64,000 bases of DNA from an uncultured Spirochaetia bacterium (GTDB lineage Bacteria > Oederibacteriota > PGYV01 > Palsa-1178): positions 1,227 to 65,226 of the forward strand of contig CAYUDX010000002.1 in the NCBI GenBank assembly GCA_964443355.1. The letters are read 5' to 3'. Below are positions 10,354 to 64,000 of the stretch, piece by piece; within the stretch, counting starts at the first letter, position 1; the number at the start of each line of letters is the position of its first letter. The notes beneath the pieces are model-generated. The model had not been told where the DNA came from and ran no database searches. It worked only from the letters and a program-made list of their open reading frames with translations. Both the position numbers and the translations under genes were made by a program.

Positions 10354-10368
10354 GACGCGTTGTTCTGT

Positions 10369-11105
10369 CCTTGTAGGGGCGGACTCGCCCGGCACTTGTT
10401 TGGCATGGCACGGCTCAGGTTTTGGTTTTGCATGGCGGTCAGTGGTTTTTTTAGCCAATCGGGACGCTCTGGCCGTTGCCGGATGACACGGTAAAAGTGG
10501 TTATGAAGCTTTACGCAGCTATATTGACACATAAAAGTATTAATGTACGATTGGCAAAAAAAACCACTGCCGGCCATTTTTGGTTTGTCCCGGTATTATG
10601 TTTTGTCCATGTAGGGGCGGACCTGTGTGTCCGCCCGGCATTTGTTTGGCATGGTACGGCTCAGGTTTTGGTTTTGCATGGCGGTCAGTGGTTTTTTTAG
10701 CCAATCGGGACGCTCTGGCCGTTGCCGGATGACACGGTAAAAGTGGTTATGAAGCTTCACGCAGCTATATTGACACATAAAAGTATTAATGAACGATTGG
10801 CTAAAAAAACCACTGCCAGCCATTTTTAGTTTGTTCCGGTATTCCATGTAGGGGCGGACTCGCCCGGCATTTGTTTGGCATGGCATGGCTCAGGCTTGGC
10901 CTTGTATGGCAGGCAAGTGCTTTTTTTTCGCCCTGCCATCAAGCTCTATGCCGTGCAGGATGACATAGAAAAGGTGTAATTTAGCTTCACGCAGCTTAAC
11001 TGACATATAAAAGTATTGGGATGGCAGGCCGAAAAAAAACCACTGCCAGCCATTTTTAATTTGTTCCGGTAATTGTGGGCTTGTTCCCTGTAGGGACCGC
11101 CCCAA
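10369..11105. repeat. Tandem array (3 full + 1 partial copies) of a ~237-bp structured repeat
   Basis: Units start at 10369, 10607 and 10844 with CC(T/A)TGTAGGGGCGG. Each unit has a GC hairpin (stem lengthened in copy 2) and a ~30-bp long-range inverted repeat (GCATGGCGGTCAGTGGTTTTTTTAGCCAATCG ... CGATTGGCTAAAAAAACCACTGCCAGCCAT) enclosing ~85 nt. Copy 3 has diverged in both arms in a compensatory way. Confidence 0.85.
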
Positions 11106-50368: not shown

Positions 50369-50613
50369 CCCCCCATTTTGAATGCGTTTGACTTAAGCAA
50401 AATCATGTGTTATTATTGAAAAGGAACAATAGCCCGCCGAAAACATTCTTTTTACGGGTTATCCGGCCAAAAAGCATTGCCTGTCATTTGATAATTTGCC
50501 CGCACTTGTGGATCCTCTAAAAAAAATTCCGGCTATTGCTTATGCGCGTCTAAAAATAAGGCTGAAAATATAACGACATTACAAATTTTTTAATCCATTT
50601 AAAGGAGGGCGGT

Positions 50614-51051: not shown

Positions 51052-53412
51052 ATGCTTTCCAGGATCAACTCGTTTCCGGAACAATTAAGGCGCATATTCA
51101 ACCCTGATGAGTGGATGATCAGGCTTTTAAGGCTTTCGGTCATAAAGGAACGTTCCACGCTTCCCGGAGCCGTAATAATACAGATCGACGGCCTGAGCCA
51201 TACGGAGTTCAACCGCGCCCTGCACAGGGGTGAGATGCCCAGGCTGGCCCGGCTTTTGAAAAAAGAGGGTTATACGCAGAGGGTCCATTACAGCGGCCTG
51301 CCCTCATGCACACCGGCGGTACAGGGGAACCTTTTTTACGGGGTGAAAAGCTGCGTGCCGGCGTTCAGTTTCAGGGACAAAAAGACGGGGAAAGTCTTCA
51401 ACATGTTCATCCCCCGGGACTCGGCCGAAATAGAAAAACGCCTGAAAAGAAAAGGGGAGCCCCTGCTGAAGAACGGCAGCTCATACGGGAATATTTTTAC
51501 CGGAGGCGCCCAGGAAGCGCATTTCTGCGTTTCGGCCATCGGCTGGGGGACGCTGCTTAGCGCGGCGAACCCGTTCGCCATAATAATATTCATCGCTATG
51601 CACCTTCTGGTCATCATACGCGCGGCCCTGCTGACGGTCCTCGAGTTCATCCTGGCGCTCTTTGATTCCATACGCGGGTTTATAGAAGGCAAGGACCTCT
51701 TTGCCGAGATCAAATACATCCCGTTTCGGGTCATTGCCTGCGTTATCATAAGGGAAGTTGTCGGCATAGGCGCAAAAATAGACATTACCCGAGGTCTTCC
51801 CGTAATACACATAAACCTTGCCGGTTATGACGAGCAATCACACCACCGCGGGCCGGGGTCCGGGTTCGCCCACTGGTCCCTCAGGGCCATTGACAGCGTG
51901 ATAGGCGGTATATGGAAGGCCACCAAAAGATCGATCCGCCGCGAGTATGACCTTTTTATTTATTCCGACCACGGGCAGGAAGAGACGAGCGATTATGAAA
52001 AACTGCACGGCAGGCACGTCCAGGCGGCCGTGAACGGGATAATGAAGGAAGTAATAAAGCATGACAATCTTCGCATGGAATCACTGTCGGGCAACCACAG
52101 CTGGCGTGCAGGTCTGATGCGCTATAGACCGCCCGTTGAAACCGCCCCCGAACAGGAAAAGAAAGACAAGGCGAACGAAGCCGTCATAACGGCCCTGGGG
52201 CCGGTGGGGTTCATATATCCCGCAAAAAAACTTTCCATGGCGCAAAAACAAAACGTAGCAAGGGCCCTTGTTAAAAAAGCCTGCATTCCAATAGTCGTCG
52301 TATCCAATTCGGCCAATACAGCATCCGCCTGGAACAGCGAAGGGAAATTCCTGCTTCCGCGCGACGCATCTAAGGTGCTCGGAGGCGACCACCCGTTCCT
52401 GAAACAGGCGGCGGAGGACCTTGTGGGATTAAGCCGCCACAAGGACGCCGGGGAAATAATGATCCTGGGTTATAAACCCGTGGGAAAGTCCGTCACATTT
52501 TACGCGGAGCGCGGCAGCCACGCGGGACCGGGAGCCCATGAAACAGCGGGTTTTGCGTTGATACCCCCGGGGGTAAAGACCGATGAGAATAAGATATTCA
52601 GGACCGGGGACCTGCGCGATGCTGTCTTAAGCGTACTGAAAAGGGAGGACAAGGCGGGCCCGGGCGTTGAAAAAAATCCGGACGGCCGTGCCAGCCTTAA
52701 AATAATGAGCTATAACATACACGCGTGCAAGGGAAGGGACGGCAAAGTTCGGCCCGACAGGATCGCGGAAGTGATTGCGTCGCACGCCCCGGATATCGTG
52801 GCGCTTCAGGAAGTGGATTCCCGGGAAAACATGCACCAGGCGAAGATAATAGCCGGACTGCTCTCCATGAACTTTTATTACCATTCGAGCGTCCTGCTCA
52901 AGACCGGCATGCACGGCAACGCGATATTAAGCCGTTACGGCATGAAACTGAAAAAAGAGGGGGCCCTGCCGAGCCTTCTAAATACTCGCTTGCTTGAAAA
53001 ACGAGGCGCTCTCTGGGTGGAGATCAACGCCAACGGGAAAAAGATACAGGTCATAAACACCCACCTGAGCCTTTTCCCGAGGGAGAGGATGATCCAGGTA
53101 AAGGAACTGCTGGGGCCGGGATGGCTGGGAAATCCCGGATGCAAAGGCGCCGTCATAATATGCGGCGATTTTAATTCGACGCTCAATTCGCGGGTGTGCA
53201 GGGCCCTGGGCAAAAAATTCCACAGCATACACTTCCACGCAAAGGGGTTCAGCCACCTGAAGACCTTCCCGAGCTTTTTCCCGCTGGGGCTCGTCGACCA
53301 TATCTTCCTCGGCGGCGGGATAAAAGCAGTAAAGATCGAGACGCCGAAAACGCGCATGGAACGCAGGGCATCGGACCATCTCCCCCTTATATCGGAGGTA
53401 AAGATCCCGTGA
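51052..53412 (+). CDS. Large fusion protein: alkaline-phosphatase-like (type I phosphodiesterase/nucleotide pyrophosphatase) core + TM segment + endonuclease/exonuclease/phosphatase (EEP) domain
   Basis: AlkP-core motifs (VIIQIDGLSH ... SDHGQE). C-terminal EEP motifs (IMSYNIHAC, ALQEV, NTHLS, CGDFNS, SDHLPL). Confidence 0.65.
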   Translation: MLSRINSFPEQLRRIFNPDEWMIRLLRLSVIKERSTLPGAVIIQIDGLSHTEFNRALHRGEMPRLARLLKKEGYTQRVHYSGLPSCTPAVQGNLFYGVKSCVPAFSFRDKKTGKVFNMFIPRDSAEIEKRLKRKGEPLLKNGSSYGNIFTGGAQEAHFCVSAIGWGTLLSAANPFAIIIFIAMHLLVIIRAALLTVLEFILALFDSIRGFIEGKDLFAEIKYIPFRVIACVIIREVVGIGAKIDITRGLPVIHINLAGYDEQSHHRGPGSGFAHWSLRAIDSVIGGIWKATKRSIRREYDLFIYSDHGQEETSDYEKLHGRHVQAAVNGIMKEVIKHDNLRMESLSGNHSWRAGLMRYRPPVETAPEQEKKDKANEAVITALGPVGFIYPAKKLSMAQKQNVARALVKKACIPIVVVSNSANTASAWNSEGKFLLPRDASKVLGGDHPFLKQAAEDLVGLSRHKDAGEIMILGYKPVGKSVTFYAERGSHAGPGAHETAGFALIPPGVKTDENKIFRTGDLRDAVLSVLKREDKAGPGVEKNPDGRASLKIMSYNIHACKGRDGKVRPDRIAEVIASHAPDIVALQEVDSRENMHQAKIIAGLLSMNFYYHSSVLLKTGMHGNAILSRYGMKLKKEGALPSLLNTRLLEKRGALWVEINANGKKIQVINTHLSLFPRERMIQVKELLGPGWLGNPGCKGAVIICGDFNSTLNSRVCRALGKKFHSIHFHAKGFSHLKTFPSFFPLGLVDHIFLGGGIKAVKIETPKTRMERRASDHLPLISEVKIP

Positions 53413-53456
53413 ACGCCGTAATGCGGGGTTTATAATAAAATCAAAGGCGGTGGATT

Positions 53457-54140
53457 ATGTTCAGGAAGTATTGCGCTGTCCCGTTTGCTTTTTTGATTAT
53501 GCTTCTGTATTTACCGGTTTACTCCGATTTCTCCGTTGATACGGACGCCCCGACCGCGATAGACAAGTCTTTTATCCAGAGCGAGATGGACGACATCGAC
53601 GCGCAGGTGCAGGACCTCGACTACGATATCGACGGCCTTAACCTGTCAAAAGAGGCGCTGAACGCGCAGATATCCATCATGCAGAACCAGCGTTTGCTGG
53701 ACGATCTTACCGCAAGAAGGAACGACCTTAACTCAAAGACTCCGGCCCTCGGCACAAAAAAGAAAAGGACAAAGGACCGGGACGCGCTTGTAAATAAACT
53801 GGCATTATTGAACAAGGAGATAGCCATAAGGAACGAGATGATAGCCCTTTACAAGCTGCAACTCGCGGACGACGAAAACTCACAGGAAGTCAGGACCGGG
53901 AATCTCGTATATATCCAGGCGCAGATAAAATTAAGGGAAGACGAGATAACCGCCCTTTCAGGGACAGATGCGGACGGCAGGACCATGAATGCGGCCGCGG
54001 CCGCAACGCCGGACGCCGCCGCACAGGCCCTGCTTGACAAGATAAAAAATATCGACGCCAGGATATCGGTTGACCGGCAAAAAATTGACGACCTCAAAAA
54101 ACAGGAGGCCCCGCTGGAAATACAGCTTAAAGGGATGTAG
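53457..54140 (+). CDS. Secreted coiled-coil hypothetical protein
   Basis: Signal peptide, then heptad-rich low-complexity sequence. Confidence 0.45.
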   Translation: MFRKYCAVPFAFLIMLLYLPVYSDFSVDTDAPTAIDKSFIQSEMDDIDAQVQDLDYDIDGLNLSKEALNAQISIMQNQRLLDDLTARRNDLNSKTPALGTKKKRTKDRDALVNKLALLNKEIAIRNEMIALYKLQLADDENSQEVRTGNLVYIQAQIKLREDEITALSGTDADGRTMNAAAAATPDAAAQALLDKIKNIDARISVDRQKIDDLKKQEAPLEIQLKGM

Positions 54141-54301
54141 ATCGGAAACGGCAGATGATGAAGGAATAATCATGTTATTTTTAACATTTTATGTTATAAT
54201 ACGGAAAGCAAGTTTTACAATAAGAAACAATTATGAGTTTTTAAGGGGATCAAACTGCGACCGCTTGCTTGTTTTAAATAAACAAGATTGGGGTTATTAG
54301 G

Positions 54302-55255
54302 ATGGAACAAAACGAGATCAATCAATATCACGGTTTGATAGGCGACAGCAATCAAATTTCATCCATCAAAACATATTTAAACGAAATAAAATATTCAAAA
54401 CTTCCTGTTTTGATCGAAGGTGAAACAGGAGTTGGAAAATCCCTCATCGCCTCGATAATCCACAAGATAAGCGACCGCGCCGCAATGCCGAAAGACCTCC
54501 TTGAAAATGAATTATTTGGACATGAGGTGGGGGCCTTTACCGGAGCCACCAGGGTAAAGCGGGGGCTCTTCGAAGTCGCCGATAGAGGAACGCTTTTTCT
54601 GGACGAGATCGGGGAGATCGATCCGGGCAACCAGGTCAAGATACTGGATGTGATAGAAACCGGGAAATTCAGGCGCCTCGGCGGAAACGAGGAAATATTG
54701 GTCGACGTGCGTATCATTACCGCCACCAACAGGAACTTAAAAGACGAAGTTGAAGAGGGCAGGTTCAGGCAGGACCTCTTTTTCAGGCTCAACGTCCTGT
54801 ATGTGTTCATACCTCCGCTCAGGGAAAGAAAAAAGGACATTCCTTCGCTCATAGAACATTTTATTAAGGCAAAATCCGGGGACCCCGGAAAAGCAGGGAG
54901 TTATTTCAGCGTTGAAGAGATGGAAACCATAACGGGCGGACAATGGCTTGGAAATTCGAGGGAACTCCTTAATTTTGTGGAAAAGACGCTTGTTTTTAAT
55001 TCCAACAAGATAAAAAGGGACGAATTCCTGAAGGAGATAGAAACCGTAAACGAAAAAATAGGAACGGAAATTGAGCCATCTGCCGAGGCGTCGGAAAAGG
55101 TGGAAACATTCGAGGCTTTTATCGACAACGCGGAAAAGGTTTTTCTCACCCAGATGCTGAAGAAATACAAATACAACAAGACAAAAATAATCAACGAATT
55201 AAAGATCAGCAGGGCAAAATTTTACAGACTGCTCAATAAATACAAGCTCAATTAA
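54302..55255 (+). CDS. Sigma-54-dependent transcriptional activator lacking an N-terminal regulatory domain (AAA+ core + Fis-type HTH)
   Basis: Walker A GETGVGKS, GAFTGA loop (GHEVGAFTGA), Walker B LFLDEIGE, C-terminal HTH. The AAA+ domain begins within ~10 residues of the start. Confidence 0.85.
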   Translation: MEQNEINQYHGLIGDSNQISSIKTYLNEIKYSKLPVLIEGETGVGKSLIASIIHKISDRAAMPKDLLENELFGHEVGAFTGATRVKRGLFEVADRGTLFLDEIGEIDPGNQVKILDVIETGKFRRLGGNEEILVDVRIITATNRNLKDEVEEGRFRQDLFFRLNVLYVFIPPLRERKKDIPSLIEHFIKAKSGDPGKAGSYFSVEEMETITGGQWLGNSRELLNFVEKTLVFNSNKIKRDEFLKEIETVNEKIGTEIEPSAEASEKVETFEAFIDNAEKVFLTQMLKKYKYNKTKIINELKISRAKFYRLLNKYKLN

Positions 55256-55310
55256 AACAGGCCTGCCGGATTTAAACAGTTTTCCCCATCACACCCGGGA
55301 ACATGCCGTT

Positions 55311-55328
55311 TAAAATACATATTGTATC
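55311..55328. promoter_or_regulatory. Palindromic upstream activator sequence (AAATACA-tat-TGTAT), copy A
   Basis: ~130 bp upstream of sigma-54 promoter A; paralogous to the site at 58962-58985. Confidence 0.5.
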
Positions 55329-55445
55329 AAAAACGGACATCCTGAAAAATAAATTATCCACTGTCCAGCCATGATAAAAACATCACAAACCTAATTATGC
55401 CCTTTATAACACAGGATAATATTACCCGCGCTCCCGTGCTTTATC

Positions 55446-55462
55446 CTGGCATGGTAAATGCT
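55446..55462 (+). promoter_or_regulatory. Sigma-54 promoter A (cTGGCAtggtaaaTGCt; -24 GG / -12 GC, 10-bp spacing)
   Basis: Exact GG-N10-GC geometry; identical 16-mer at 59097-59113. Confidence 0.7.
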
Positions 55463-55556
55463 TTATATGCATGCATATAATTCCATTTGACGACGGCTCT
55501 ATTTGATGAAAGCGCCGGTTAATTCAGTGGATTCCCCCAAAAAAGGAGCTAAACAA

Positions 55557-55604
55557 TGGAAAAGGAATATTTATGTCAAAAGGTTTTCGAAACAGTAAAT
55601 TAAT
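55557..55604 (+). pseudogene. Frameshifted remnant of the small coiled-coil gene (paralog of 59207..59497)
   Basis: ATGGAAAAGGAATATTTATGTCAAAAGGTTTTCGAAACAG aligns to the 5' end of the 59207 gene with a 2-nt deletion; stop after 15 codons. Confidence 0.5.
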
Positions 55605-55707
55605 GAATTTTTCAGATTAAAAGCGGGAGGAATAAAAAAACATGACGGATAAAAACGATCTTTCGCATCTTTGATTTACAAATATATCATAAAGGGAGGA
55701 AATTTAG

Positions 55708-56553
55708 ATGAAAAAATTACTATCAGTATCGGTTGCGGCGATTTTTGCGGTCATTGTACTTATCGTGGCCGGTTGCGGAAGCTGGAACAAAACAACAGGC
55801 CCTTTGTCCAGGATCAATGTGAATCTTGGAACCGCGTCAACAATGGGGGGCATCGGCGGAGGCGCCGGAATGACCAATCAGGGGGTTAATACCGTGGTCA
55901 ACGGGGATATCGCGACCACAGGCGCTTCCACGCTGGTTACCGGGTTTCACGATACCGGAAATGTTTATACTGAAACAGGCTCCAATATAGGGCACGTAAC
56001 AGGGAAGATATATACCGCTCCGCCTCCTCCTTCAGGCGGCGACGGATCGGAAGGAACCGCGTCAACATTTGCCGTGGCCGCACAGGCCCTGGCTGACGCG
56101 CAGACCGCGTATGACAGCCTTATGCCTGCTTCCATGCCCGGAGGCATAGACCCCGGAGCCGGACAACTCGGCGGGTTGACACTCGCGCCCGGCATCTATA
56201 AAGCAGCCGGAGGCACGTTCCTGATCACGGGATCGGATCTTACCCTTGACGGAAAAGGGGACCCGAATGCCGCCTGGGTTTTCCAGATGGCCAGTTCGCT
56301 TACCGTCGGCGACACTTCGCCGCGCTCCGTATTGCTGATAAACGGCGCCCAGGCCAAAAACGTATACTGGCAGGTGGGCAGCGCCGCTACTATAAACGGA
56401 GCGGCCGGCGGGACAATGGTCGGCACGATCATCGCTTATTCAGGGGTGACGTTCTCGACCGCAGGGTTAACAACGATAACGACGCTTAACGGCAGGGCCC
56501 TTGGTTTGAACGCTTCCGTAACGCTGGTAAACACAGTCATTAATGTGCCATAA
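55708..56553 (+). CDS. Lipoprotein with ice-binding-like (DUF3494) beta-helix domain
   Basis: Lipobox VAGC. DUF3494 core motifs (LGGLTLAPGIYK ... LTLDGKGDPNAAWVFQ ... INGAQAKNVYWQVGSAATI ... LNGRALGLNASVTL). GGGAGG RBS. Confidence 0.75.
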   Translation: MKKLLSVSVAAIFAVIVLIVAGCGSWNKTTGPLSRINVNLGTASTMGGIGGGAGMTNQGVNTVVNGDIATTGASTLVTGFHDTGNVYTETGSNIGHVTGKIYTAPPPPSGGDGSEGTASTFAVAAQALADAQTAYDSLMPASMPGGIDPGAGQLGGLTLAPGIYKAAGGTFLITGSDLTLDGKGDPNAAWVFQMASSLTVGDTSPRSVLLINGAQAKNVYWQVGSAATINGAAGGTMVGTIIAYSGVTFSTAGLTTITTLNGRALGLNASVTLVNTVINVP

Positions 56554-56612
56554 ACGGCCGCTTAAAGGAATTTTCCAAATTCTAAAATACGTAAATAGAA
56601 AAGAGGTTTAAA

Positions 56613-57704
56613 ATGAAAAAAATGAATTTAACCGTTCTTTTTGCGAGGATGGCGGCAACGGCCGTATTGGTCCTTGCTTTGGTCCTTCCGGCGGCTGTTT
56701 TTGCTGAAATAAGGGAAGGAAGCTTTGAATTAACCGGTTTCGGGGGTTACAATTTTTTTGAAACAAGGCAGAACCTGCACGATCATCCCATCTATGGAGG
56801 CCGTCTGGGCTACAATGTGCTGGACAACCTCGGCGTTGAGTTCTCGGCTGAATTCATGAACACCGCCGTGTATAACAACGGCATAACAGGCTATACAAAA
56901 GGGCGTTTTACGGCTCCCGCGGGTAATGTGGATATTATGTTCTGGAACGCCGACCTTGTTTATCACTTCATGCCAGAGGGAAGGCTGAATCCTTTCCTGG
57001 CGGTCGGCGCCGGCGCCACCCAGTATACTCCGAGCATAGAAAATTATGAAATGACAACGCTGAATTTTGCCGCAGGCGTGAAATACTGGGTCCTTGACGA
57101 CCTTGGAGTAAGGCTGGATCTCAGGGACAATATGGTCTCCGAGTTCATTCACGATACCTACAATAATGTCAATGTCACCATCGGCATAGACTACCAGTTC
57201 CTTGGAAAAAAATCGGAGCAGCAGGAACCTACGACTACGCCTACACCCACGCCGACAAAAATAGTAAAAAAGGAGGTTGTTTTTGTTGCTGAAGAACCGA
57301 AACCGGAAGAAAAAGTCCTTGAGGTGGTTCCCAAAGCCGATGTGGTCGTTCTTGTATTTGAGGACATGCACTTCAATTTTGACAAATCAACGCTTACCGA
57401 CCAGACAAAAAATGTGATCAAGAAAAGTATTAAAGAGATGGATAAGAATCCCAACGTAAAGATACTTATTGCGGGGTATACATCCGCCGCGGGGACCAAA
57501 GAATACAATCAAAAGCTCAGCGAAAGAAGGGCCGCTGCAGTCAGGGATTACCTTGTAAGTGAAAAAGTCATATCGCCGGACAGGTTGTCCATAATAGGAT
57601 ACGGCGAAATGCGGCCGCAGGAATATGAAACAGTACCCAGTGATCATTATTCCAAGGCGGCCAAGGCGAATATGACTGTGCTTTTTACCGTGGTTGTGAA
57701 ATAA
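56613..57704 (+). CDS. OmpA-family outer membrane protein (beta-barrel + PT-rich linker + peptidoglycan-binding OmpA_C)
   Basis: Signal peptide, beta-barrel N-domain, PTTTPTPTPTK linker, and OmpA_C (NVKILIAGYTSAAGTKEYNQKLSERRAAAV). Confidence 0.85.
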   Translation: MKKMNLTVLFARMAATAVLVLALVLPAAVFAEIREGSFELTGFGGYNFFETRQNLHDHPIYGGRLGYNVLDNLGVEFSAEFMNTAVYNNGITGYTKGRFTAPAGNVDIMFWNADLVYHFMPEGRLNPFLAVGAGATQYTPSIENYEMTTLNFAAGVKYWVLDDLGVRLDLRDNMVSEFIHDTYNNVNVTIGIDYQFLGKKSEQQEPTTTPTPTPTKIVKKEVVFVAEEPKPEEKVLEVVPKADVVVLVFEDMHFNFDKSTLTDQTKNVIKKSIKEMDKNPNVKILIAGYTSAAGTKEYNQKLSERRAAAVRDYLVSEKVISPDRLSIIGYGEMRPQEYETVPSDHYSKAAKANMTVLFTVVVK

Positions 57705-57759
57705 CGTAAAGCCGGGCTTTCAGATTCCTGATATCTGTAAAACAAACAGGGGGATGTTT

Positions 57760-58206
57760 ATGGGAAAAAAAATATCGTTATTTTTAAAGACATCGACGTG
57801 CATTTTATTGGCATTTTTATTGATAGGCTGCGGGACGCTCCTGTATCCAAAACGCATCGGCCAGAGGAGCGGTAACATTGACGCCGGTGTCGCTGTTTTG
57901 GACGGGCTGTGCCTGCTGCTTTTTGTGGTCCCGGGAATTGTGGCTTTTGTCGTTGATTTCTCGAACGGCACAATTTACCTTCCTGGAGGAAACAGGAGCA
58001 TGCTTGACAGGGAAGACGCGAAAAAGATAAGCTTTGACGCCAGGAGATGCACAATAGCCGACATAGAAAAAATAGTAAAAAATGAGACCGGCTATGAAGT
58101 CGACAGGCCGGATACAAGGATTTACGCTTTCTCTTCCATGAAAGAATTGGATATGAATTTGGCCGCATTGACGCAAAATACAGCCATTGCCGTATGCAGT
58201 AAGTAA
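57760..58206 (+). CDS. Hypothetical lipoprotein
   Basis: Lipobox LIGC, then a TM-like segment. AGGGGG RBS; ATG 57760 preferred over 57754. Confidence 0.5.
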   Translation: MGKKISLFLKTSTCILLAFLLIGCGTLLYPKRIGQRSGNIDAGVAVLDGLCLLLFVVPGIVAFVVDFSNGTIYLPGGNRSMLDREDAKKISFDARRCTIADIEKIVKNETGYEVDRPDTRIYAFSSMKELDMNLAALTQNTAIAVCSK

Positions 58207-58287
58207 AAGCGGCCAAGTATAATGGTATTACCTTAGGGAAGGAAAAAATTTTAATGATATTGTAACGTGGAAAAGGAGGCTGTATTA

Positions 58288-58452
58288 ATGAACAAATGGG
58301 TGTGCACGGTTTGTGGATACATTTATGATCCGTCGAAAGGGGATCCTGATAAAGGAGTGGAACCGGGGACGCCTTTTGAAAAAATTCCAGTCGAATGGGT
58401 GTGTCACGAATACGGGGCCGCAAAAATGGCTTTTAAAGAACTGAAACAATAG
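58288..58452 (+). CDS. Rubredoxin-like protein lacking the fourth cysteine ligand
   Basis: [12 protein letters not shown] ... GDPD ... PGT.FE.IP ... WVCHEYGA: the canonical second knuckle CPxCG is replaced by CHEYG. AAGGAGG RBS with 8-nt spacing. Confidence 0.7.
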
Positions 58453-58505
58453 TTTTCAGTTTGATGCGAATAATTTAAAAGAAAAGCCGCAGAGGATGAT
58501 TTAAA

Positions 58506-58877
58506 ATGGGAAAAAAAGCATTGGTTATCGATGATAATATAAATAATCTATTGCTCGAAAAAGATCTTCTTGAAACAGCCGGTTTCGAAGTGTTTGAAGC
58601 GGAAGACGCTTCCACGGGAATAGCCATGGCAAAAAAGGAAAAACCAAATATCATCATTATGGATGTCCGGCTGCCGGATATGCGCGGTACAGAAGCCGCA
58701 AAAATGCTGCGAAAAGTCAAAGAAACGAACGATATTCCCATTGTTTTTGTAACTGCTTCGGTATTGCAGGAAGACGTGGAAGCGTTAAAAGTTATTCCTC
58801 ATACCGGATATATAGGCAAACCAATAAATACACGCACGTTTGTAACGGAAATAAGCCTATATTTACGGTCAAATTAA
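58506..58877 (+). CDS. Single-domain response regulator (receiver only)
   Basis: ALVIDDN ... IIIMDVRLPDMRG ... GKP receiver motifs; 123 aa. Confidence 0.75.
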   Translation: MGKKALVIDDNINNLLLEKDLLETAGFEVFEAEDASTGIAMAKKEKPNIIIMDVRLPDMRGTEAAKMLRKVKETNDIPIVFVTASVLQEDVEALKVIPHTGYIGKPINTRTFVTEISLYLRSN

Positions 58878-58961
58878 AGGCCTTGTCTTAAATAAAAAAG
58901 GTCGTAAACACAACAAAAACTCCGAGGGAAATCATTTCCCGGAGCGCGCCTGCCACCCTGT

Positions 58962-58985
58962 TTAAAATACATATTGTATTTAAAA
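58962..58985. promoter_or_regulatory. Palindromic upstream activator sequence (TTAAAATACA-tat-TGTATTTAAAA), copy B
   Basis: Better-preserved dyad than copy A; ~130 bp upstream of sigma-54 promoter B. Confidence 0.55.
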
Positions 58986-59096
58986 CGTACATTCTCAAAA
59001 ACAAACCATCCATGGCCGCTCCCTGATAAGACATCATAAGCCGTATTATGTCCTTTATAACATCGGTTAAAATCACCCCTGCGTCCATGCCCTTTC

Positions 59097-59113
59097 CTGG
59101 CATGGTAAATGCT
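59097..59113 (+). promoter_or_regulatory. Sigma-54 promoter B (cTGGCAtggtaaaTGCt)
   Basis: Identical to promoter A; ~95 bp upstream of the ATG at 59207. Confidence 0.7.
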
Positions 59114-59206
59114 CTATATACATATATATGAATCCATATAATGCCGGATGTATTTTGAAAAAGTGCCGGTCAATTTAAGTGGATTTCCAAAAAAAGGAGT
59201 TAAACG

Positions 59207-59497
59207 ATGGAAAAAAGGGATGTTTATGTCGAAAGGTTTTCGAAACAACTGAAGGATTGGAATTTGAAAATAGACAGGCTGGTCGCCGGCGCGGATAAGG
59301 CGGCCAACGGCGCCAAAATCGAATTTTCAAAACAAATCGAACTTTTAAAGCAAAAAAGAGAGGATGCCGCTGGAAAATTGCAGCATTTAAAAGATGCGGA
59401 CGCGGATGCGTGGGAAAGCATAGTGGAAGGCACACAAAAAGCCTGGGACGACCTCAAGCAGGCCATGCATACCGCGAGCGAAAAACTAAAGCAATAA
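59207..59497 (+). CDS. Small coiled-coil protein (96 aa), first gene of the sigma-54 operon B
   Basis: AAAGGAG RBS; helical, charged sequence; an intact paralog of the remnant at 55557. Confidence 0.55.
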   Translation: MEKRDVYVERFSKQLKDWNLKIDRLVAGADKAANGAKIEFSKQIELLKQKREDAAGKLQHLKDADADAWESIVEGTQKAWDDLKQAMHTASEKLKQ

Positions 59498-59498
59498 C

Positions 59499-60515
59499 AT
59501 GGCAGCCGAAAATTTTACCCTGCGGAAGGCCGAACCGTTCGGAACGGATGAAATAAAGGCGCGGATGGAAAACGGTGAAAAGCTTGCCCTTGTGCTGCCG
59601 GGCGGCGGATCAAGGGGGCGATGGCAGTTTGGCGCCATATACCGTCTCTATCAGATAGGCGTGCTGGACAGGGTCGATTTGATATGCGGCACTTCCGTGG
59701 GCGGTTTGAACACATTATTTACCGCCAAGTACAAATCCGATATGGAAAAGCCGCTTTTAATATGGAACAACATAAAAAAAAATTCAGATGTATACGACGG
59801 CATAATGAAGTTGAGGACTCCATTTGATTTTGTCAGGCTGCTCGCGCAGATATTCACCGACAACAAGGCCCGCAGCATATTGAATCCCAGGGGGCTTTAC
59901 TCGCTCATAGACAGGGAATTTGCCGGGATGACGCTTAAGGATCTCTCCTGCCCCGTATGCCTTGCGACCACCAACATGTCTACGGCGGATTTTGTCGAGA
60001 TAAGCACCATGACGGATCCGGATTTTTCAGCCGTTCAGCTGGCAAAGCTGACCAGCGCCATACCCATTATTTTTCCCGCGGTGGAATTTGCCAACGAAGG
60101 TTACACCGACCTCGGGGTGGACGGCGGAATGGGAAGGCATAACCCGGTAAAGCTCGCGATAAAGAACGGCGCCACAAAAATAATACTGATAGGGACGTCG
60201 CCCCATAAGATCCCGAGGGAAGCGCTGAGAAAAGACGTAGTGTCCCTGGGCGGGCGCCTTGAAAACGCCCTGATGCACATCTTTGAGGAGTCTTCCTGGG
60301 ATGAGGCGGACCTTTACAAAAAATTTTCCGACCTTGACGCGGCGCAGTATCCACCGATCGAATTCCTGGACCTTTACCCTAAGGACGGGACATATAACCT
60401 GGAATATGAGATAAACGCCCTTGATTTTTCGGGAACCATGACAATGCAGAACGGATACGACCATGCCGTAAAGAATTTTTCCCCGGAAGTCATCGGCGAT
60501 TTTTTGACGTCATGA
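59499..60515 (+). CDS. Patatin-like phospholipase
   Basis: Oxyanion LPGGGSRG, nucleophile elbow GTSVG, catalytic Asp in DLGVDGG. Confidence 0.8.
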   Translation: MAAENFTLRKAEPFGTDEIKARMENGEKLALVLPGGGSRGRWQFGAIYRLYQIGVLDRVDLICGTSVGGLNTLFTAKYKSDMEKPLLIWNNIKKNSDVYDGIMKLRTPFDFVRLLAQIFTDNKARSILNPRGLYSLIDREFAGMTLKDLSCPVCLATTNMSTADFVEISTMTDPDFSAVQLAKLTSAIPIIFPAVEFANEGYTDLGVDGGMGRHNPVKLAIKNGATKIILIGTSPHKIPREALRKDVVSLGGRLENALMHIFEESSWDEADLYKKFSDLDAAQYPPIEFLDLYPKDGTYNLEYEINALDFSGTMTMQNGYDHAVKNFSPEVIGDFLTS

Positions 60516-61441
60516 CGCCGTTTTGGAAGCTTGTTATGCGCACCGCCGTCATCCCGGCGCTGATCATTTGTTCCGCCGGTTGCGCCACATACGCTCCGGC
60601 AACAGAACAGCATTTGAGCCGGGAAATACAGACCATGGTCGCCGAAGCGCCGGTATTGCCCCGGGGACCGGTTTCACACAGGGACGCCGTCAGGTCGGTA
60701 AGTTATGAAAGAAAAGGGGATAAGGCAATGACTATGCTGATAAAGTCCAGGGGTTCGGCAAAAGAAATCGAACTGGCGGACAATATCATTGATGATTATA
60801 AGAACGCCCTCATATTGGACGGCAAAAGCGGGATACTTGTGCACAAATATTGCCAGGCCGTCGAGCTAAAGTACAATTTACTGATGCCGGAAGGGGAAAA
60901 AGAGGCCGAAAGGCAAAAAGCATATGCCGACACCCTTGCCATGCTGGAAACGCTGTATCCCGGAGAAAACAATGCGGTTTACGCGGATTATGACAAGGCG
61001 CTTTTCCTGGTGCTAAATACTGCGTATTCAAATATTTTTCAGGTGATAGGGGTAGTTAACAGGGTCCATGCGCTTTGCGAAAAGATATATAAGGAAGACG
61101 CGGGTTTTGAGGATCACGGAGCCCTGACGGCGCTCGGCAGGATAAACTTACTTGCCCCGAATATCCCGGTCTTTATTTCATGGCCCGATAAAAAGCTTTC
61201 CCGTAGTTATCTTGAGGAAGCCCTCAAATACAACCCGGATTCCCTGCTGGTGAAATTTTTCCTTGCCGACACAATGTACGCCCTCGGTGAAAAGGAAAAA
61301 GCCGCGGTATATTTCATGGAAGTCGCCGGAAGGACACCCAGGGAAGATATTAATTATTTTGAGGACAGGAAGGTGCGGAATATATGTATTACCAGGATGA
61401 AAGAACTCGGGATACAACTTCCGGATACGATTTGTATGTAA
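60512..61441 (+). CDS. Hypothetical lipoprotein (helical, TPR-like?)
   Basis: Lipobox SAGC. Overlaps the patatin stop (ATGA). Confidence 0.45.
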   Translation: MTPFWKLVMRTAVIPALIICSAGCATYAPATEQHLSREIQTMVAEAPVLPRGPVSHRDAVRSVSYERKGDKAMTMLIKSRGSAKEIELADNIIDDYKNALILDGKSGILVHKYCQAVELKYNLLMPEGEKEAERQKAYADTLAMLETLYPGENNAVYADYDKALFLVLNTAYSNIFQVIGVVNRVHALCEKIYKEDAGFEDHGALTALGRINLLAPNIPVFISWPDKKLSRSYLEEALKYNPDSLLVKFFLADTMYALGEKEKAAVYFMEVAGRTPREDINYFEDRKVRNICITRMKELGIQLPDTICM

Positions 61442-61646
61442 ACGGAATTGATATTGAAATGCGGCGCAATGAAAATTCGGCTGATTCAGGTTCATGCATT
61501 TCCGTTTTGCCGCCATTTCCTTATATTATTGGCGGATTTTTGTTCCGGAAAAATATTGACATATTGACGGCACGGCAATTGCTGCTATTGATGTGAAATG
61601 TTTTTATTTTATCCGATTTTACGGATAAAAATCAAAAGGAGGGTTC

Positions 61647-62258
61647 ATGAAAATTTTTTCAGCTATGCTCACGGTCATTTTTTTTGCAAGTGTTCCGGTT
61701 TTTGCCGACGATTCGTCAAAGACACCGGCTTCGGAGGCTACGGCTGACAGGGTGGCGATAGGAACGGTAATTCCCGAAGCCACCAGGACGGACGCGCAAA
61801 TACACAGGATAGACAAAAAGATCGGCAAGATCGACAGGGAAAAGGATTCTATAGATACGCATCAGGAGAAGCTTGAGAATTCAAAGGAAAAAGCCGAGAT
61901 TTCGAATATTAAAGGAGGTTTTGACGAGTTAAAACTGACCGTATCTGAAAAAATCACCTGGGCCCAGATAAAGAAATTAAGAGCGGACAAGCACAAACTA
62001 CAGGCCTCATTGCTCTCCGCAAAGAGCAATGATGAAAAAGCCTCCATCAGTGCCAAGATCGGCGAAAACAAGGCAAAGGACGCATGGCTTGCCGCAAAGA
62101 TAAAATCCGTCGATGCGAAAATGCTCGAGGATAAGGACGATATAAACAGGGAACAGGTCAAAATAAAGAAGATCGACATAAAGCAAAAGGGACTGGACTC
62201 GGACAATAAGGACCTTAATAACGCTAAGGAAGATCTTGAGGCAAAAAAGGCGAATTAA
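61647..62258 (+). CDS. Secreted Lys/Asp-rich coiled-coil protein
   Basis: Signal peptide. AAAGGAGGG RBS. Terminator hairpin at 62337-62397. Confidence 0.5.
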   Translation: MKIFSAMLTVIFFASVPVFADDSSKTPASEATADRVAIGTVIPEATRTDAQIHRIDKKIGKIDREKDSIDTHQEKLENSKEKAEISNIKGGFDELKLTVSEKITWAQIKKLRADKHKLQASLLSAKSNDEKASISAKIGENKAKDAWLAAKIKSVDAKMLEDKDDINREQVKIKKIDIKQKGLDSDNKDLNNAKEDLEAKKAN

Positions 62259-62336
62259 TTTCAAACGGGAGGAAAAAACAGGCTCCCTAAAGCGCGCCGA
62301 AGATACATTTAGTGCCGGAAACGATACAGATGGAAA

Positions 62337-62397
62337 ACGCACATCCCGGGAAGGGCGCGGACGATTTGCGGCAAACCGGGGTGTGCGTTTTATTTTA
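62337..62397 (+). terminator. Rho-independent terminator (long imperfect hairpin AACGCACATCCCGG ... CCGGGGTGTGCGTT + T-rich tail)
   Basis: Downstream of the 61647..62258 gene. Confidence 0.6.
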
Positions 62398-62543
62398 TCC
62401 TGTTTTTAAGGCGTGTTAACAAGCCGACACTTGCTTTTAAGGCTTTAAACCGGATCAAAAAAGTTGTGGCATGTTAATTGCTTTTAATATATCCAGCCGT
62501 GGAGGATTTATCCCCGCGGAAATAAGTTTAAAAGGCGGCATCA

Positions 62544-62960
62544 GTGTTAACAAAAACAAAGAAACACCTGATCCTGATCGCGGACGACGACAAGTATATC
62601 CGGGAATTGCTCCATAGGGAGCTTGATCTGTCGGAATATGAGGTAAATATCGTCAACAACGGGGACAAACTCATCAGCCTTCTACAGACAAAAAAAGCGA
62701 GCCTTGTGATAACGGACATATACATGGACGACACGGACGGTTTTGAGGTTATCACCATAGTGAAGAGGCTGAACCCATATATTCCGATCATAGTGATCAC
62801 CGGCGACAATGATATTGAACTGGAAAGAAAGGTGAGGAACAAGGATATTTTCGCATATTTTATTAAACCTATCGAGATAAAAATATTCCATGAAACGATC
62901 AAAGCTGCAATCGACGGTTTCAGCAAATCCGAAGCGTTGAGTTTTGACAGGAAGCACTAA
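62544..62960 (+). CDS. Single-domain response regulator (receiver only)
   Basis: LILIADDD ... LVITDIYMDDTDG ... FIKP receiver motifs. GTG start after AAGGCGG. Confidence 0.65.
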   Translation: MLTKTKKHLILIADDDKYIRELLHRELDLSEYEVNIVNNGDKLISLLQTKKASLVITDIYMDDTDGFEVITIVKRLNPYIPIIVITGDNDIELERKVRNKDIFAYFIKPIEIKIFHETIKAAIDGFSKSEALSFDRKH

Positions 62961-63012
62961 GGCATGAACCATCGTTTATGAGCGTGATACGGAACGGTAA
63001 AAAGGAGCAAAA

Positions 63013-63513
63013 ATGAAAAAGATTTTTTCACTGGCATTGGCACTGATTTTTGCAATAAGTTCAATAGCCGCCGCGGAAGTCTGGATAGCCGGGCACGCGG
63101 TCACCGGCGACGACTACGCCGGCGCAAGAGGCCTGGGCATAGGCATCGTGCTGGGTGAGATAAACGGCTTGAGCGTCAAAAATTGGGTCAGCCGGGACAA
63201 TGCGGTCCAATTTGACTTCAACTGGGACGTAAACTACGGAGGCCTTGGTTTTGGCGCCGCGTATCTTATACATAATTTCAACATAATAGAGGCGGACAAC
63301 AACCTGTGGCCCCTGTATTTCGGGATAAAAGGATGGGCCGCCATGTCGTCGGGGACGGCCAACGCAGGAATTCAAGTGCCGCTCGGTTTCGCATGGATAC
63401 CGAGGACCGCGCCTATCGATATTTTTGTCCAGTTCGAACCGGGTATCAGCGTCATCCCGGACATGCATTTTGCGCCGGGAGGAGGCTTAGGCATCAGGTT
63501 CTGGTTCGGTTAG
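63013..63513 (+). CDS. Small outer-membrane beta-barrel protein (8-strand, OmpW/OmpX-like size)
   Basis: Signal peptide, alternating aromatic/Gly strands, C-terminal RFWFG. Confidence 0.55.
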   Translation: MKKIFSLALALIFAISSIAAAEVWIAGHAVTGDDYAGARGLGIGIVLGEINGLSVKNWVSRDNAVQFDFNWDVNYGGLGFGAAYLIHNFNIIEADNNLWPLYFGIKGWAAMSSGTANAGIQVPLGFAWIPRTAPIDIFVQFEPGISVIPDMHFAPGGGLGIRFWFG

Positions 63514-63548
63514 AGTACTTGGAACGATGAAAAAAAATGGAGGAAAAA

Positions 63549-64000
63549 ATGAAAAAATCAACACTTTTGCTGGTTTGCGCTTTTCTGACACTGTCTTTAA
63601 GCATTATCTCCGCGGGTTGTAAAAAGAACAGCACGACATCGCCGGGGGCCATTCCAACGGCTATACCGACGGTGACCGGCGGCATAGGCCAGGCTGCCGT
63701 GGTTCTCGGGACTTCGGCAAGGTTCGCGATACTATCCGACCAGTCAATAACCGACGTTCCGACATCGGCAATTACCGGAGATGTGGGAATAAGCCCGGGA
63801 AACAGGTCTTCGTGCGCCTTATTGCCTGCTGAAGTCAACGGCACCGGAGCGAACGGAGCTTATGCAATTTACGCGGCAGATGACGCGGGAAGCGTTCCCG
63901 CAATGCTTGTACAGGCCAAAACAGACGCGTTAAACGCCTATGGCGACGCGATAAACGCCTCACGCGGCACCCCGACATCCATATCTGGAAATCTTAACGG
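63549..64000 (+). CDS. Second ice-binding-like (DUF3494) lipoprotein, 3'-partial at the window edge (missed by the ORF track)
   Basis: GGAGGA RBS and ATG 63549. Lipobox SAGC. N-terminal DUF3494 signature LGTSARFAILSDQSITDVPTSAITGDVGISPGN. Open to the end of the window. Confidence 0.7.
   Translation, partial: MKKSTLLLVCAFLTLSLSIISAGCKKNSTTSPGAIPTAIPTVTGGIGQAAVVLGTSARFAILSDQSITDVPTSAITGDVGISPGNRSSCALLPAEVNGTGANGAYAIYAADDAGSVPAMLVQAKTDALNAYGDAINASRGTPTSISGNLN

Follow-up and report, generated by a model that had tools for sequence, protein, structure and literature searches.

How does a sigma-54-dependent activator that has no sensory domain of its own come to be used, and which genes would it serve? 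The question is raised by a 64,000-nt stretch of DNA from an uncultured Spirochaetia bacterium (contig CAYUDX010000002.1, positions 1,227 to 65,226; hereafter the window). At 54302-55255 it carries a gene for a bacterial enhancer-binding protein (bEBP) made of an AAA+ core and a helix-turn-helix (HTH) region, followed on the same strand by repeated pairs of a palindrome and a -24/-12 promoter. We consider it likely that this region is a sigma-54 regulon island in which a sensor-less bEBP of the PspF/HrpS type acts through four cassettes, each combining an upstream activating sequence (UAS) with a promoter, on operons that encode envelope and general-stress proteins. The following features are central to this proposal.

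54302..55255, + strand: sigma-54 activator (bEBP) without sensory domain, AAA+ core and divergent Fis-type HTH, 317 aa, deletion allele (Pfam)
54477..54489, + strand: junction left by an in-frame loss of 30 nt, flanked by short direct repeats CGCAATGCC (comparison with assemblies L001 and L002)
55308..55594, + strand: cassette A, with UAS palindrome core ATACATATTGTAT (55315-55327), promoter TGGCATGGTAAATGCT (55447-55462), leader, ribosome-binding site and 5' remnant of an sll1863-family gene
55556..55603, + strand: 15-codon remnant open reading frame (ORF), the 5' end of an sll1863-type gene minus 2 nt, cut at the duplication breakpoint ~55597
58960..59247, + strand: cassette B, with perfect palindrome AAATACATATTGTATTT (core 58967-58979), promoter TGGCATGGTAAATGCT (59098-59113), leader and ribosome-binding site
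61425..61583, + strand: cassette C, with palindrome ATACGATTTGTAT (61425-61437; 1 mismatch, overlapping the stop codon of a TPR protein gene) and promoter CGGCACGGCAATTGCT (61568-61583)
62303..62482, + strand: cassette D, with degenerate upstream element GATACATTTAGTGCCGGAAACGATACA (62302-62329) and promoter TGGCATGTTAATTGCT (62467-62482)

The activator gene and the cassettes behind it

The product of ORF 54302-55255 matches Sigma54_activat (PF00158) with 182.6 bits (cut-off 20.2); its other strong Pfam matches are AAA_lid_14 (46.6 bits) and Sigma54_activ_2, with none beyond these. Walker A (GETGVGKS), Walker B (FLDEIGE) and GAFTGA (at 54530) motifs are all present. The AAA+ domain begins at residue 12, which leaves 11 N-terminal residues, and the ORF cannot be extended upstream, so that there is no room for a sensory domain. 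This agrees with the initial annotation, which had described a bEBP devoid of receiver, GAF and PAS domains and ending in an HTH. The C-terminal ~40 residues cover positions 3-42 of the 42-position HTH_8 model with a sub-threshold score of 19.5 bits (cut-off 22), alignments with the PspF and NorR models extend up to 1-3 residues from the C-terminus, and two aligned homologues (P0015, P0026) carry a precomputed PF02954 match. The protein is the sole bEBP encoded within the window. Orthologues on four fetched contigs of related taxa (L003, L004, L006 and L008) are 65-83% identical to it, and the closest named relatives belong to Candidatus Goldbacteria / Goldiibacteriota. GuaB encoded in the window is in turn 70-82% identical to proteins that carry these names at NCBI; the genome is probably that of a member of Candidatus Goldbacteria. 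Scanning the contig collection with a longer, 327-aa allele described below yielded relatives at 36-51% identity only, from many phyla.

Cassettes A and B are direct repeats (55308-55594 and 58960-59247) that are 74-91% identical per segment and 78% identical from UAS to promoter. Both contain the palindrome ATACAtatTGTAT, whose core ATACATATTGTAT is exact at 55315 and 58967, and an identical 16-mer promoter TGGCATGGTAAATGCT at 55447 and 59098, 132 and 131 bp past the start of the palindrome, respectively; both continue into a common ribosome-binding site and ATG. The initial annotation had reported two paralogous regions sharing a palindrome, a sigma-54 promoter some 130 bp further on and one gene start, and the alignment bears this out with one correction: the longer form of the palindrome, AAATACA-tat-TGTATTT, is perfect in B alone, the outer arm in A being TGTATCA. 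It had also attributed the loss of the small gene in A to a 2-nt deletion. Two nucleotides are indeed missing from the run of A residues after the ATG, such that the shifted frame of copy A reads KRNIYVKRFSKQ where copy B reads KRDVYVERFSKQ, but similarity between the copies stops at ~55597 and the gene is therefore truncated at the breakpoint as well as frameshifted. In copy A, a cassette and the ~14 initial codons of a gene of the sll1863 family have thus been joined to the front of another operon. Separately, AAATACAAGCTCAATTA at 55238-55254, within the last activator codons (NKYKLN), is a weak palindrome match 75 bp upstream of UAS A that recurs at L003 10859; it may be an additional site of lower strength or a mere by-product of the coding sequence.

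The A/B pair is not a one-off. A relaxed scan revealed two further promoters on the same strand, at 61568 before the gene for a 203-aa protein and at 62467 before that for a 138-aa receiver, lying 143 bp (C) and 164 bp (D) downstream of their palindromes. Across the four cassettes of the window, the palindromes have 0, 0, 1 and 3 mismatches and are located 131-164 bp upstream of promoters that are all intergenic, on the + strand, and built with GG/GC doublets spaced like the sigma-54 consensus TGGCAC-N5-TTGCW. With at most one mismatch, the promoter pattern occurs five times in the window against 0.13 expected, four of the five matches falling on one strand within 55.4-62.5 kb, and the palindrome occurs four times against 0.86 expected; among random 110-nt stretches of the related loci, a palindrome with at most one mismatch turned up in 1.4% of trials. 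Many cassettes also show, by eye, (G)NACA as a third half-site, located ~21 nt past the first ATACA. Rfam returned no match in window 53000-64000, which indicates that the cassette leaders are not known riboswitches or small RNAs. Scans for sigma-70 promoters and terminators gave chance-level results only, and none of the terminator-like sites lies between promoter A and 55708.

Each cassette precedes one of the following genes or blocks of genes.

55708..58877, + strand: block A (Pfam, NCBIfam)
55708-56553, + strand: Ice_binding/DUF3494 lipoprotein, block A
56613-57704, + strand: OmpA-family protein, block A
57754-58206, + strand: lipobox protein, block A
58267-58452, + strand: rubredoxin-like protein, block A
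58506-58877, + strand: single-domain receiver, 123 aa, block A
59207..61441, + strand: block B (NCBIfam, Pfam)
59207-59497, + strand: sll1863-family protein, 96 aa, block B (NF052504)
59499-60515, + strand: patatin-like phospholipase, block B (Patatin, E=1e-24)
60512-61441, + strand: TPR protein with a possible lipobox, block B (TPR_19, 23.8 bits, below the cut-off of 25)
61647..62258, + strand: secreted coiled-coil protein, 203 aa, behind cassette C
62544..63513, + strand: block D (orthologues in L003, L004 and L006)
62544-62960, + strand: single-domain receiver, 138 aa, block D
63013-63513, + strand: 166-aa protein, block D

The Pfam and NCBIfam assignments reproduce the gene orders of the initial annotation behind A (DUF3494 lipoprotein, OmpA, lipobox protein, rubredoxin-like protein, receiver) and behind B (an intact 96-aa protein and a patatin), the last gene of B encoding the TPR protein with the possible lipobox. 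Past the window edge, block D continues in L001 with an Ice_binding protein and a 250-aa protein; its orthologues in L003, L004 and L006 are 61-91% identical. The 203-aa protein is 77% identical to the product of L003 11140-11751 and 56% identical to that of L004 5938-6537, both of which also stand behind a cassette. Judging from the contents of the blocks, the output of the regulon would be envelope and general-stress proteins. As a side observation, the rubredoxin-like protein has CTVCG, but CHEYG where the second CPxCG would be expected; it thus lacks the fourth Cys ligand of iron and has a His, and its 89%-identical homologue in L004 (1508-1669) retains the CHEYG variant.

We propose that the activator would bind the inverted repeat ATACA-N3-TGTAT through its C-terminal Fis-type HTH, at sites 123-164 bp upstream of TGGCAYG-N-TAAWTGCT promoters, with an extra half-site (G)NACA about two helical turns downstream of the palindrome. 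It would then assemble into a ring, loop to sigma-54 RNA polymerase and open the promoter with ATP. Each operon block would be headed by one cassette, which would place under the same control the DUF3494, OmpA, lipoprotein, rubredoxin-like and receiver genes (A), the sll1863, patatin and TPR genes (B), the gene for the 203-aa coiled-coil protein (C), and those for a receiver, the 166-aa protein and a DUF3494 protein (D). The anatomy of the sequence, its conservation and its duplication are observed directly; binding of the palindrome by this bEBP, use of sigma-54 and the direction of regulation are what we infer from them.

Conservation and possible reshuffling of the cassette-headed blocks

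Comparison with related taxa supports the pairing of activator and cassettes. A palindrome and a promoter follow the orthologous activator gene in L003, L004, L006 and L008, at the same place that cassette A occupies in the window, with distances of 123-164 bp between the two elements and up to four cassettes per locus. Their positions (palindrome / promoter) are as follows.

L003: 10937 / 11060
L004: 11113 / 11263, 3287 / 3449 and 5736 / 5874
L006: 10975 / 11127
L008: 2421 / 2584

In five taxa, the first cassette starts ~60-120 bp past the activator stop codon. When seven cassettes from four taxa are aligned, the palindrome and the -24/-12 element alone are invariant while the spacers diverge; the invariant promoter columns read GGCA..G.TA..TGCT. 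The D-type promoter is conserved in three taxa and the upstream element of D in L003 and L004. A search for further copies, which the initial annotation had suggested, thus found them in the window (C and D) and in four related taxa, and a scan of a metagenome collection for palindrome plus promoter added five contigs, all with homologous modules. In one kind of module, the cassette is followed by an orthologue of the sll1863-family gene (90% identical) and a patatin gene (89%); in a second, by genes for CsbD and a DUF3494-like protein; in a third, a kinase gene and an orthologue of the 123-aa receiver gene precede the cassette, and a gene for a large DUF3494-like protein follows it.

The blocks start at cassettes, and their order and content vary among relatives. 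The orthologue of cassette B in L092 and L096 has the same downstream genes, with 86% nucleotide identity that begins at exactly window position 58958. Cassettes A and B and the single L003 cassette are nearly equidistant (78%, 74% and 74% identity). The L003 cassette combines an A/B-like UAS and spacer with a promoter-proximal part, a leader and a gene that are orthologous to those of cassette C, from which it follows that, relative to L003, the window has ~6.1 kb (blocks A and B) extra between the UAS and promoter C; alternatively, L003 may have lost the ~6.1 kb by recombination between cassettes. Beside the activator gene of L004 stands a cassette that drives two genes of the sll1863 family, for proteins of 94 and 97 aa, the second of which is 59% identical to the 96-aa protein. 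This arrangement fits cassette A having once driven an sll1863-type gene. Taken together, these alignments suggest that the A/B pair arose by recombination or a segmental duplication, one breakpoint of which fell within an sll1863-type gene and left a cassette and a stub before the DUF3494 operon. Duplication and capture of a promoter module, as the initial annotation had imagined, is supported in substance, but as a single event within an island that is modular in general, the window holding four cassettes rather than an isolated pair.

The reverse strand of L096 deserves separate mention. Compared with L003 6508-18535, it lacks the whole 12-kb activator island, and its flanks are 83-90% identical to those of L003 at the nucleotide level. 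The absent segment comprises the phosphodiesterase gene, the activator gene and the regulon blocks, between a gene for a 250-aa protein and pth; L096 keeps a cassette-sll1863-patatin unit after comEC. A bolder proposal is that the cassette is a portable, recombinogenic module, with operon blocks between cassettes being gained, lost and reshuffled by cassette-cassette recombination. The stub at the A/B junction, the mixed L003 cassette, the homology edge at cassette B shared with L096 and the absence of the 12-kb island all point in this direction, and if it were true the cassette would be the route by which genes enter the regulon. We give a single estimate to this proposal and to the idea, taken up below, that the activator answers to a new kind of partner in trans, and hold them to be rather unlikely.

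Several observations weigh against the regulon as we describe it. The palindrome of cassette D is degenerate (3 mismatches), and the strict pattern finds no good palindrome at the D-type site of L004. The HTH match of the activator lies below the Pfam threshold. The cassette in L096, which has no syntenic activator island, indicates that a cassette is not always beside this activator gene. Finally, no RpoN-box motif was found in the 64-kb window or in 91 loci, so that the presence of sigma-54 is deduced only from the conserved GAFTGA activator and the -24/-12 elements; a literature search for Goldbacteria and sigma-54 gave no match. It might then be asked whether the palindrome serves some other regulator, be it a repressor or a different bEBP whose gene lies elsewhere, and stands near the activator gene by coincidence. 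The cassette retained in L096 despite the missing island would be compatible with this, as would the similar half-sites found before sigma-54-like promoters beside 45%-identical domain-less bEBPs in L090 and L091. We regard such a coincidence as highly improbable given that the first cassette lies within ~60-120 bp of the activator stop codon in five taxa, that the activator is the only bEBP in the window, and that 123-164 bp is a promoter distance typical of bEBP sites, as in the NtrC and PspF systems.

The upstream neighbour of the activator gene (window 51052-53412) encodes a 786-aa fusion of a phosphodiesterase/nucleotide pyrophosphatase with an endonuclease/exonuclease/phosphatase and is conserved in the window, L003, L004 and L009, where it is split into two separate genes. 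In L090 (10001-11566) and L091 (10001-11618), the genes for more distant domain-less bEBPs, 322 aa long and 45% identical to the activator, have behind them a sigma-54-like promoter and a chemotaxis-like CheY-CheA cluster, with the related half-sites ATACAACCTGTTT and ATACTATTTGTTT upstream. Elsewhere in the window, the intergenic region 10368-11071 is composed of three tandem ~246-bp units (80-98% identical), each containing a near-perfect ~118-nt hairpin with weak scores on both strands, to microRNA-precursor models only.

The 10-residue deletion in the activator

Two other assemblies of the same strain, L001 (JGI) and L002 (ENA), are identical to the window across 19.7 kb and 9.7 kb, bar a 30-nt indel within the activator gene. 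The deletion in the window allele is flanked by 9-nt direct repeats and removes the residues AMPFIILRCG, which align with positions ~57-66 of PspF, where the "W56 loop" ends and strand beta2 lies; compared with NtrC1 of Aquifex, 10 residues are missing between SDR and AMPKD. This segment is kept in 13 of 13 aligned relatives, and NtrC1 and PspF have its equivalent. The complete AAA+ alpha/beta core is present in the 327-aa allele of L001 and L002 and absent from the 317-aa allele of the window, with Sigma54_activat scores of 209.6 and 182.6 bits, respectively. In PspF, substitution of F60 or I61 strongly reduces activation and abolishes engagement of sigma-54, and N64 belongs to the glutamate switch (PMC3791423); the equivalents of all three residues lie within the lost segment. 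As for the residue at the N64 position, it is an Arg (FIILRCG) in 11 of 11 aligned orthologues that have the segment (65-97% identical), the position itself being gone from the window allele, and an Asn in the two 45%-identical domain-less relatives, unlike the orthologues.

These observations suggest that the 317-aa allele is probably dead, or else an assembly artefact. Loss of strand beta2 would inactivate the activator and leave the four promoters silent, unless the deletion is itself an artefact. In the more radical version of this interpretation, the system would be a relic in this genome: the 30-nt deletion would be real, the activator null, the four promoters silent, and the stub in cassette A a further sign of decay. 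Its supporting points are the loss of strand beta2 together with the F60, I61 and N64 equivalents, the 9-nt direct repeats, a pattern expected from replication slippage, and the record of the exact 317-aa protein at NCBI. On the contrary, the gene is intact, at 327 aa, in two independent assemblies of the same strain that are identical otherwise; the genes downstream are undamaged and do not differ between the two forms, which leaves no time for decay; and the deletion may stem from a minority variant or from an error in assembly or consensus. A relic is conceivable, and we lean somewhat against it. Whichever its origin, the deposited allele is hereby flagged as probably non-functional or mis-assembled.

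Possible input in trans and comparison with known systems

With no sensory domain in cis, input to the activator would most likely arrive in trans or through the abundance of the activator itself. The stretches ahead of the operon to which the activator gene belongs (50369-50613 and 54141-54301) showed no sigma-54 promoter, and autoregulation is thus unsupported in the window; L004 differs in that its activator gene lies downstream of a cassette.

Speculation in the initial annotation had centred on the small first gene of block B as a PspA-like anti-activator that would bind the activator and provide negative feedback. The 96-aa product belongs to the sll1863 family of stress response proteins (NF052504, 89.2 bits, cut-off 35; residues 3-95 on model positions 1-93 of 93). 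A word-indexed search retrieved the protein itself and one fragment only; the exhaustive search used instead found relatives in 1878 representative clusters (E ≤ 0.001), mostly ~95 aa long. Larger proteins, 180-530 aa in length, contain the ~95-aa domain in tandem (two or three copies) or joined to other regions. In Synechocystis, Sll1863 is among the most strongly salt-induced and most abundant proteins, with no assigned function and no salt phenotype in the knock-out (PMC8670252). Such strong stress induction, the plausibility of control in trans for an activator without a sensory domain, and the position of an sll1863-family gene first behind a cassette in the window, L092/L096 and L004, in the last case directly after the activator gene, all favour an anti-activator.

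Nothing in the sequence or predicted fold of the 96-aa protein recalls PspA. Pfam returned zero matches at E ≤ 10, PspA_IM30 (PF04012) included, and no PspA or Vipp1 chain is among the best 60 of 105 PDB profile matches at E ≤ 10. The AlphaFold2 model (72 sequences) is a compact three-helix bundle (helices 2-31, 34-63 and 66-95; predicted local distance difference test, pLDDT, 91) that does not match the long ESCRT-III-like helical hairpin fold; Foldseek found no PDB match to it at E<0.3, the best being designed three-helix bundles. On the activator side, the hydrophobic patch by which PspF docks PspA, formed by Y51, L52 and W56 (PMC3791423), aligns with K/I/A, so that the docking surface is absent. 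Moreover, the cassette beside the activator gene drives other genes in three of the four related taxa (L003, L006 and L008), and the 1878-cluster family takes its name from a cyanobacterial member; cyanobacteria are not known to possess sigma-54. The PspA-like anti-activator is accordingly unsupported and very improbable. A role as anti-activator of another type, by analogy with HrpV for HrpS, may still be envisaged for the 96-aa protein; were the sll1863-type bundle the partner in trans, it would be the first molecular function for this widespread family. The PDB profile search also matched apolipoprotein A-I-type amphipathic helices; we took this as amphipathic-helix composition and rejected homology.

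A different source of input would be a two-component system acting in trans, in the manner of a split NtrC, in which a kinase encoded elsewhere would phosphorylate either of two conserved single-domain receivers (62544, 138 aa; 58506, 123 aa) and this receiver would control the activator. The 138-aa receiver is among the most conserved members of the island (61-91% identity in L003, L004 and L006) and has its own cassette D in three taxa; L006 has genes for a PAS histidine kinase and a 138-aa receiver directly upstream of the activator gene, and in L093 and L095 a cassette is immediately preceded by genes for a kinase and for the orthologue of the 123-aa receiver. By eye, the translations of both receivers retain the acidic pocket, the phospho-acceptor Asp and the conserved Thr and Lys. 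Their identity to the receiver domains of full-length NtrC-type relatives (26-35%) is, on the contrary, ordinary for any receiver, and single-domain receivers are common and usually have other targets, for which reasons we think this route unlikely.

The kind of system described here is ordinary. What makes the locus worth keeping is a defined putative binding motif, a modular evolution bounded by cassettes, and the deletion allele. It provides a comparison-backed regulon, with site, promoter type and cargo, for a domain-less bEBP in an uncultured candidate phylum, an architecture hitherto known mostly from PspF and HrpR/HrpS, and would tie the sll1863 and CsbD stress proteins and the DUF3494 "ice-binding-like" envelope proteins to sigma-54 control. 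It may also offer a natural example of a promoter-plus-enhancer module spreading to new operons.

Among the closest known systems is PspF-PspA of E. coli. PspF likewise consists of an AAA+ core and a C-terminal HTH without an N-terminal sensory domain, is 43% identical to the activator over the AAA+ domain, and acts from upstream sites on sigma-54 promoters with envelope and stress genes as targets. The scores of the window protein with the equivalog models (TIGR02974, 212.2 bits against a cut-off of 443.55; PRK11608, 184.2 against 529) nevertheless make it PspF-like in architecture and not a PspF orthologue. The locus also differs in having no PspA homologue and no YLW patch, and in that the activator would serve several operons through four or more cassettes, whereas the targets of PspF are one psp operon and pspG. 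The best sequence match among solved structures is NtrC1 of Aquifex aeolicus (4ly6, 1ny6, 1ny5 and 3dzd; E ~2e-63), which aligns over the whole AAA+ domain including GAFTGA; unlike the window protein, NtrC1 has an N-terminal receiver and the 10 residues of strand beta2. In the case of Sll1863 of Synechocystis PCC 6803, the 96-aa protein is a full-length family match, and stress induction of Sll1863 would fit a stress regulon, but the window gene stands behind a sigma-54 cassette and before a patatin-like lipase, whereas the Synechocystis gene neighbours sll1862 and is regulated by other means. HrpR/HrpS of Pseudomonas syringae are likewise domain-less bEBPs, reported to be under the control in trans of a small unrelated protein (PMC3105312, PMC4145663). 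The window locus differs from the HrpR/HrpS-HrpV system in having one activator gene, no identified HrpV or HrpG homologue and no single target of the hrpL type. One relative nonetheless carries two tandem domain-less activator paralogues of 322 and 319 aa (L008 231-2304 and L009 3150-5223; 86% identical) followed by one cassette, an arrangement reminiscent of the HrpR/HrpS pair.

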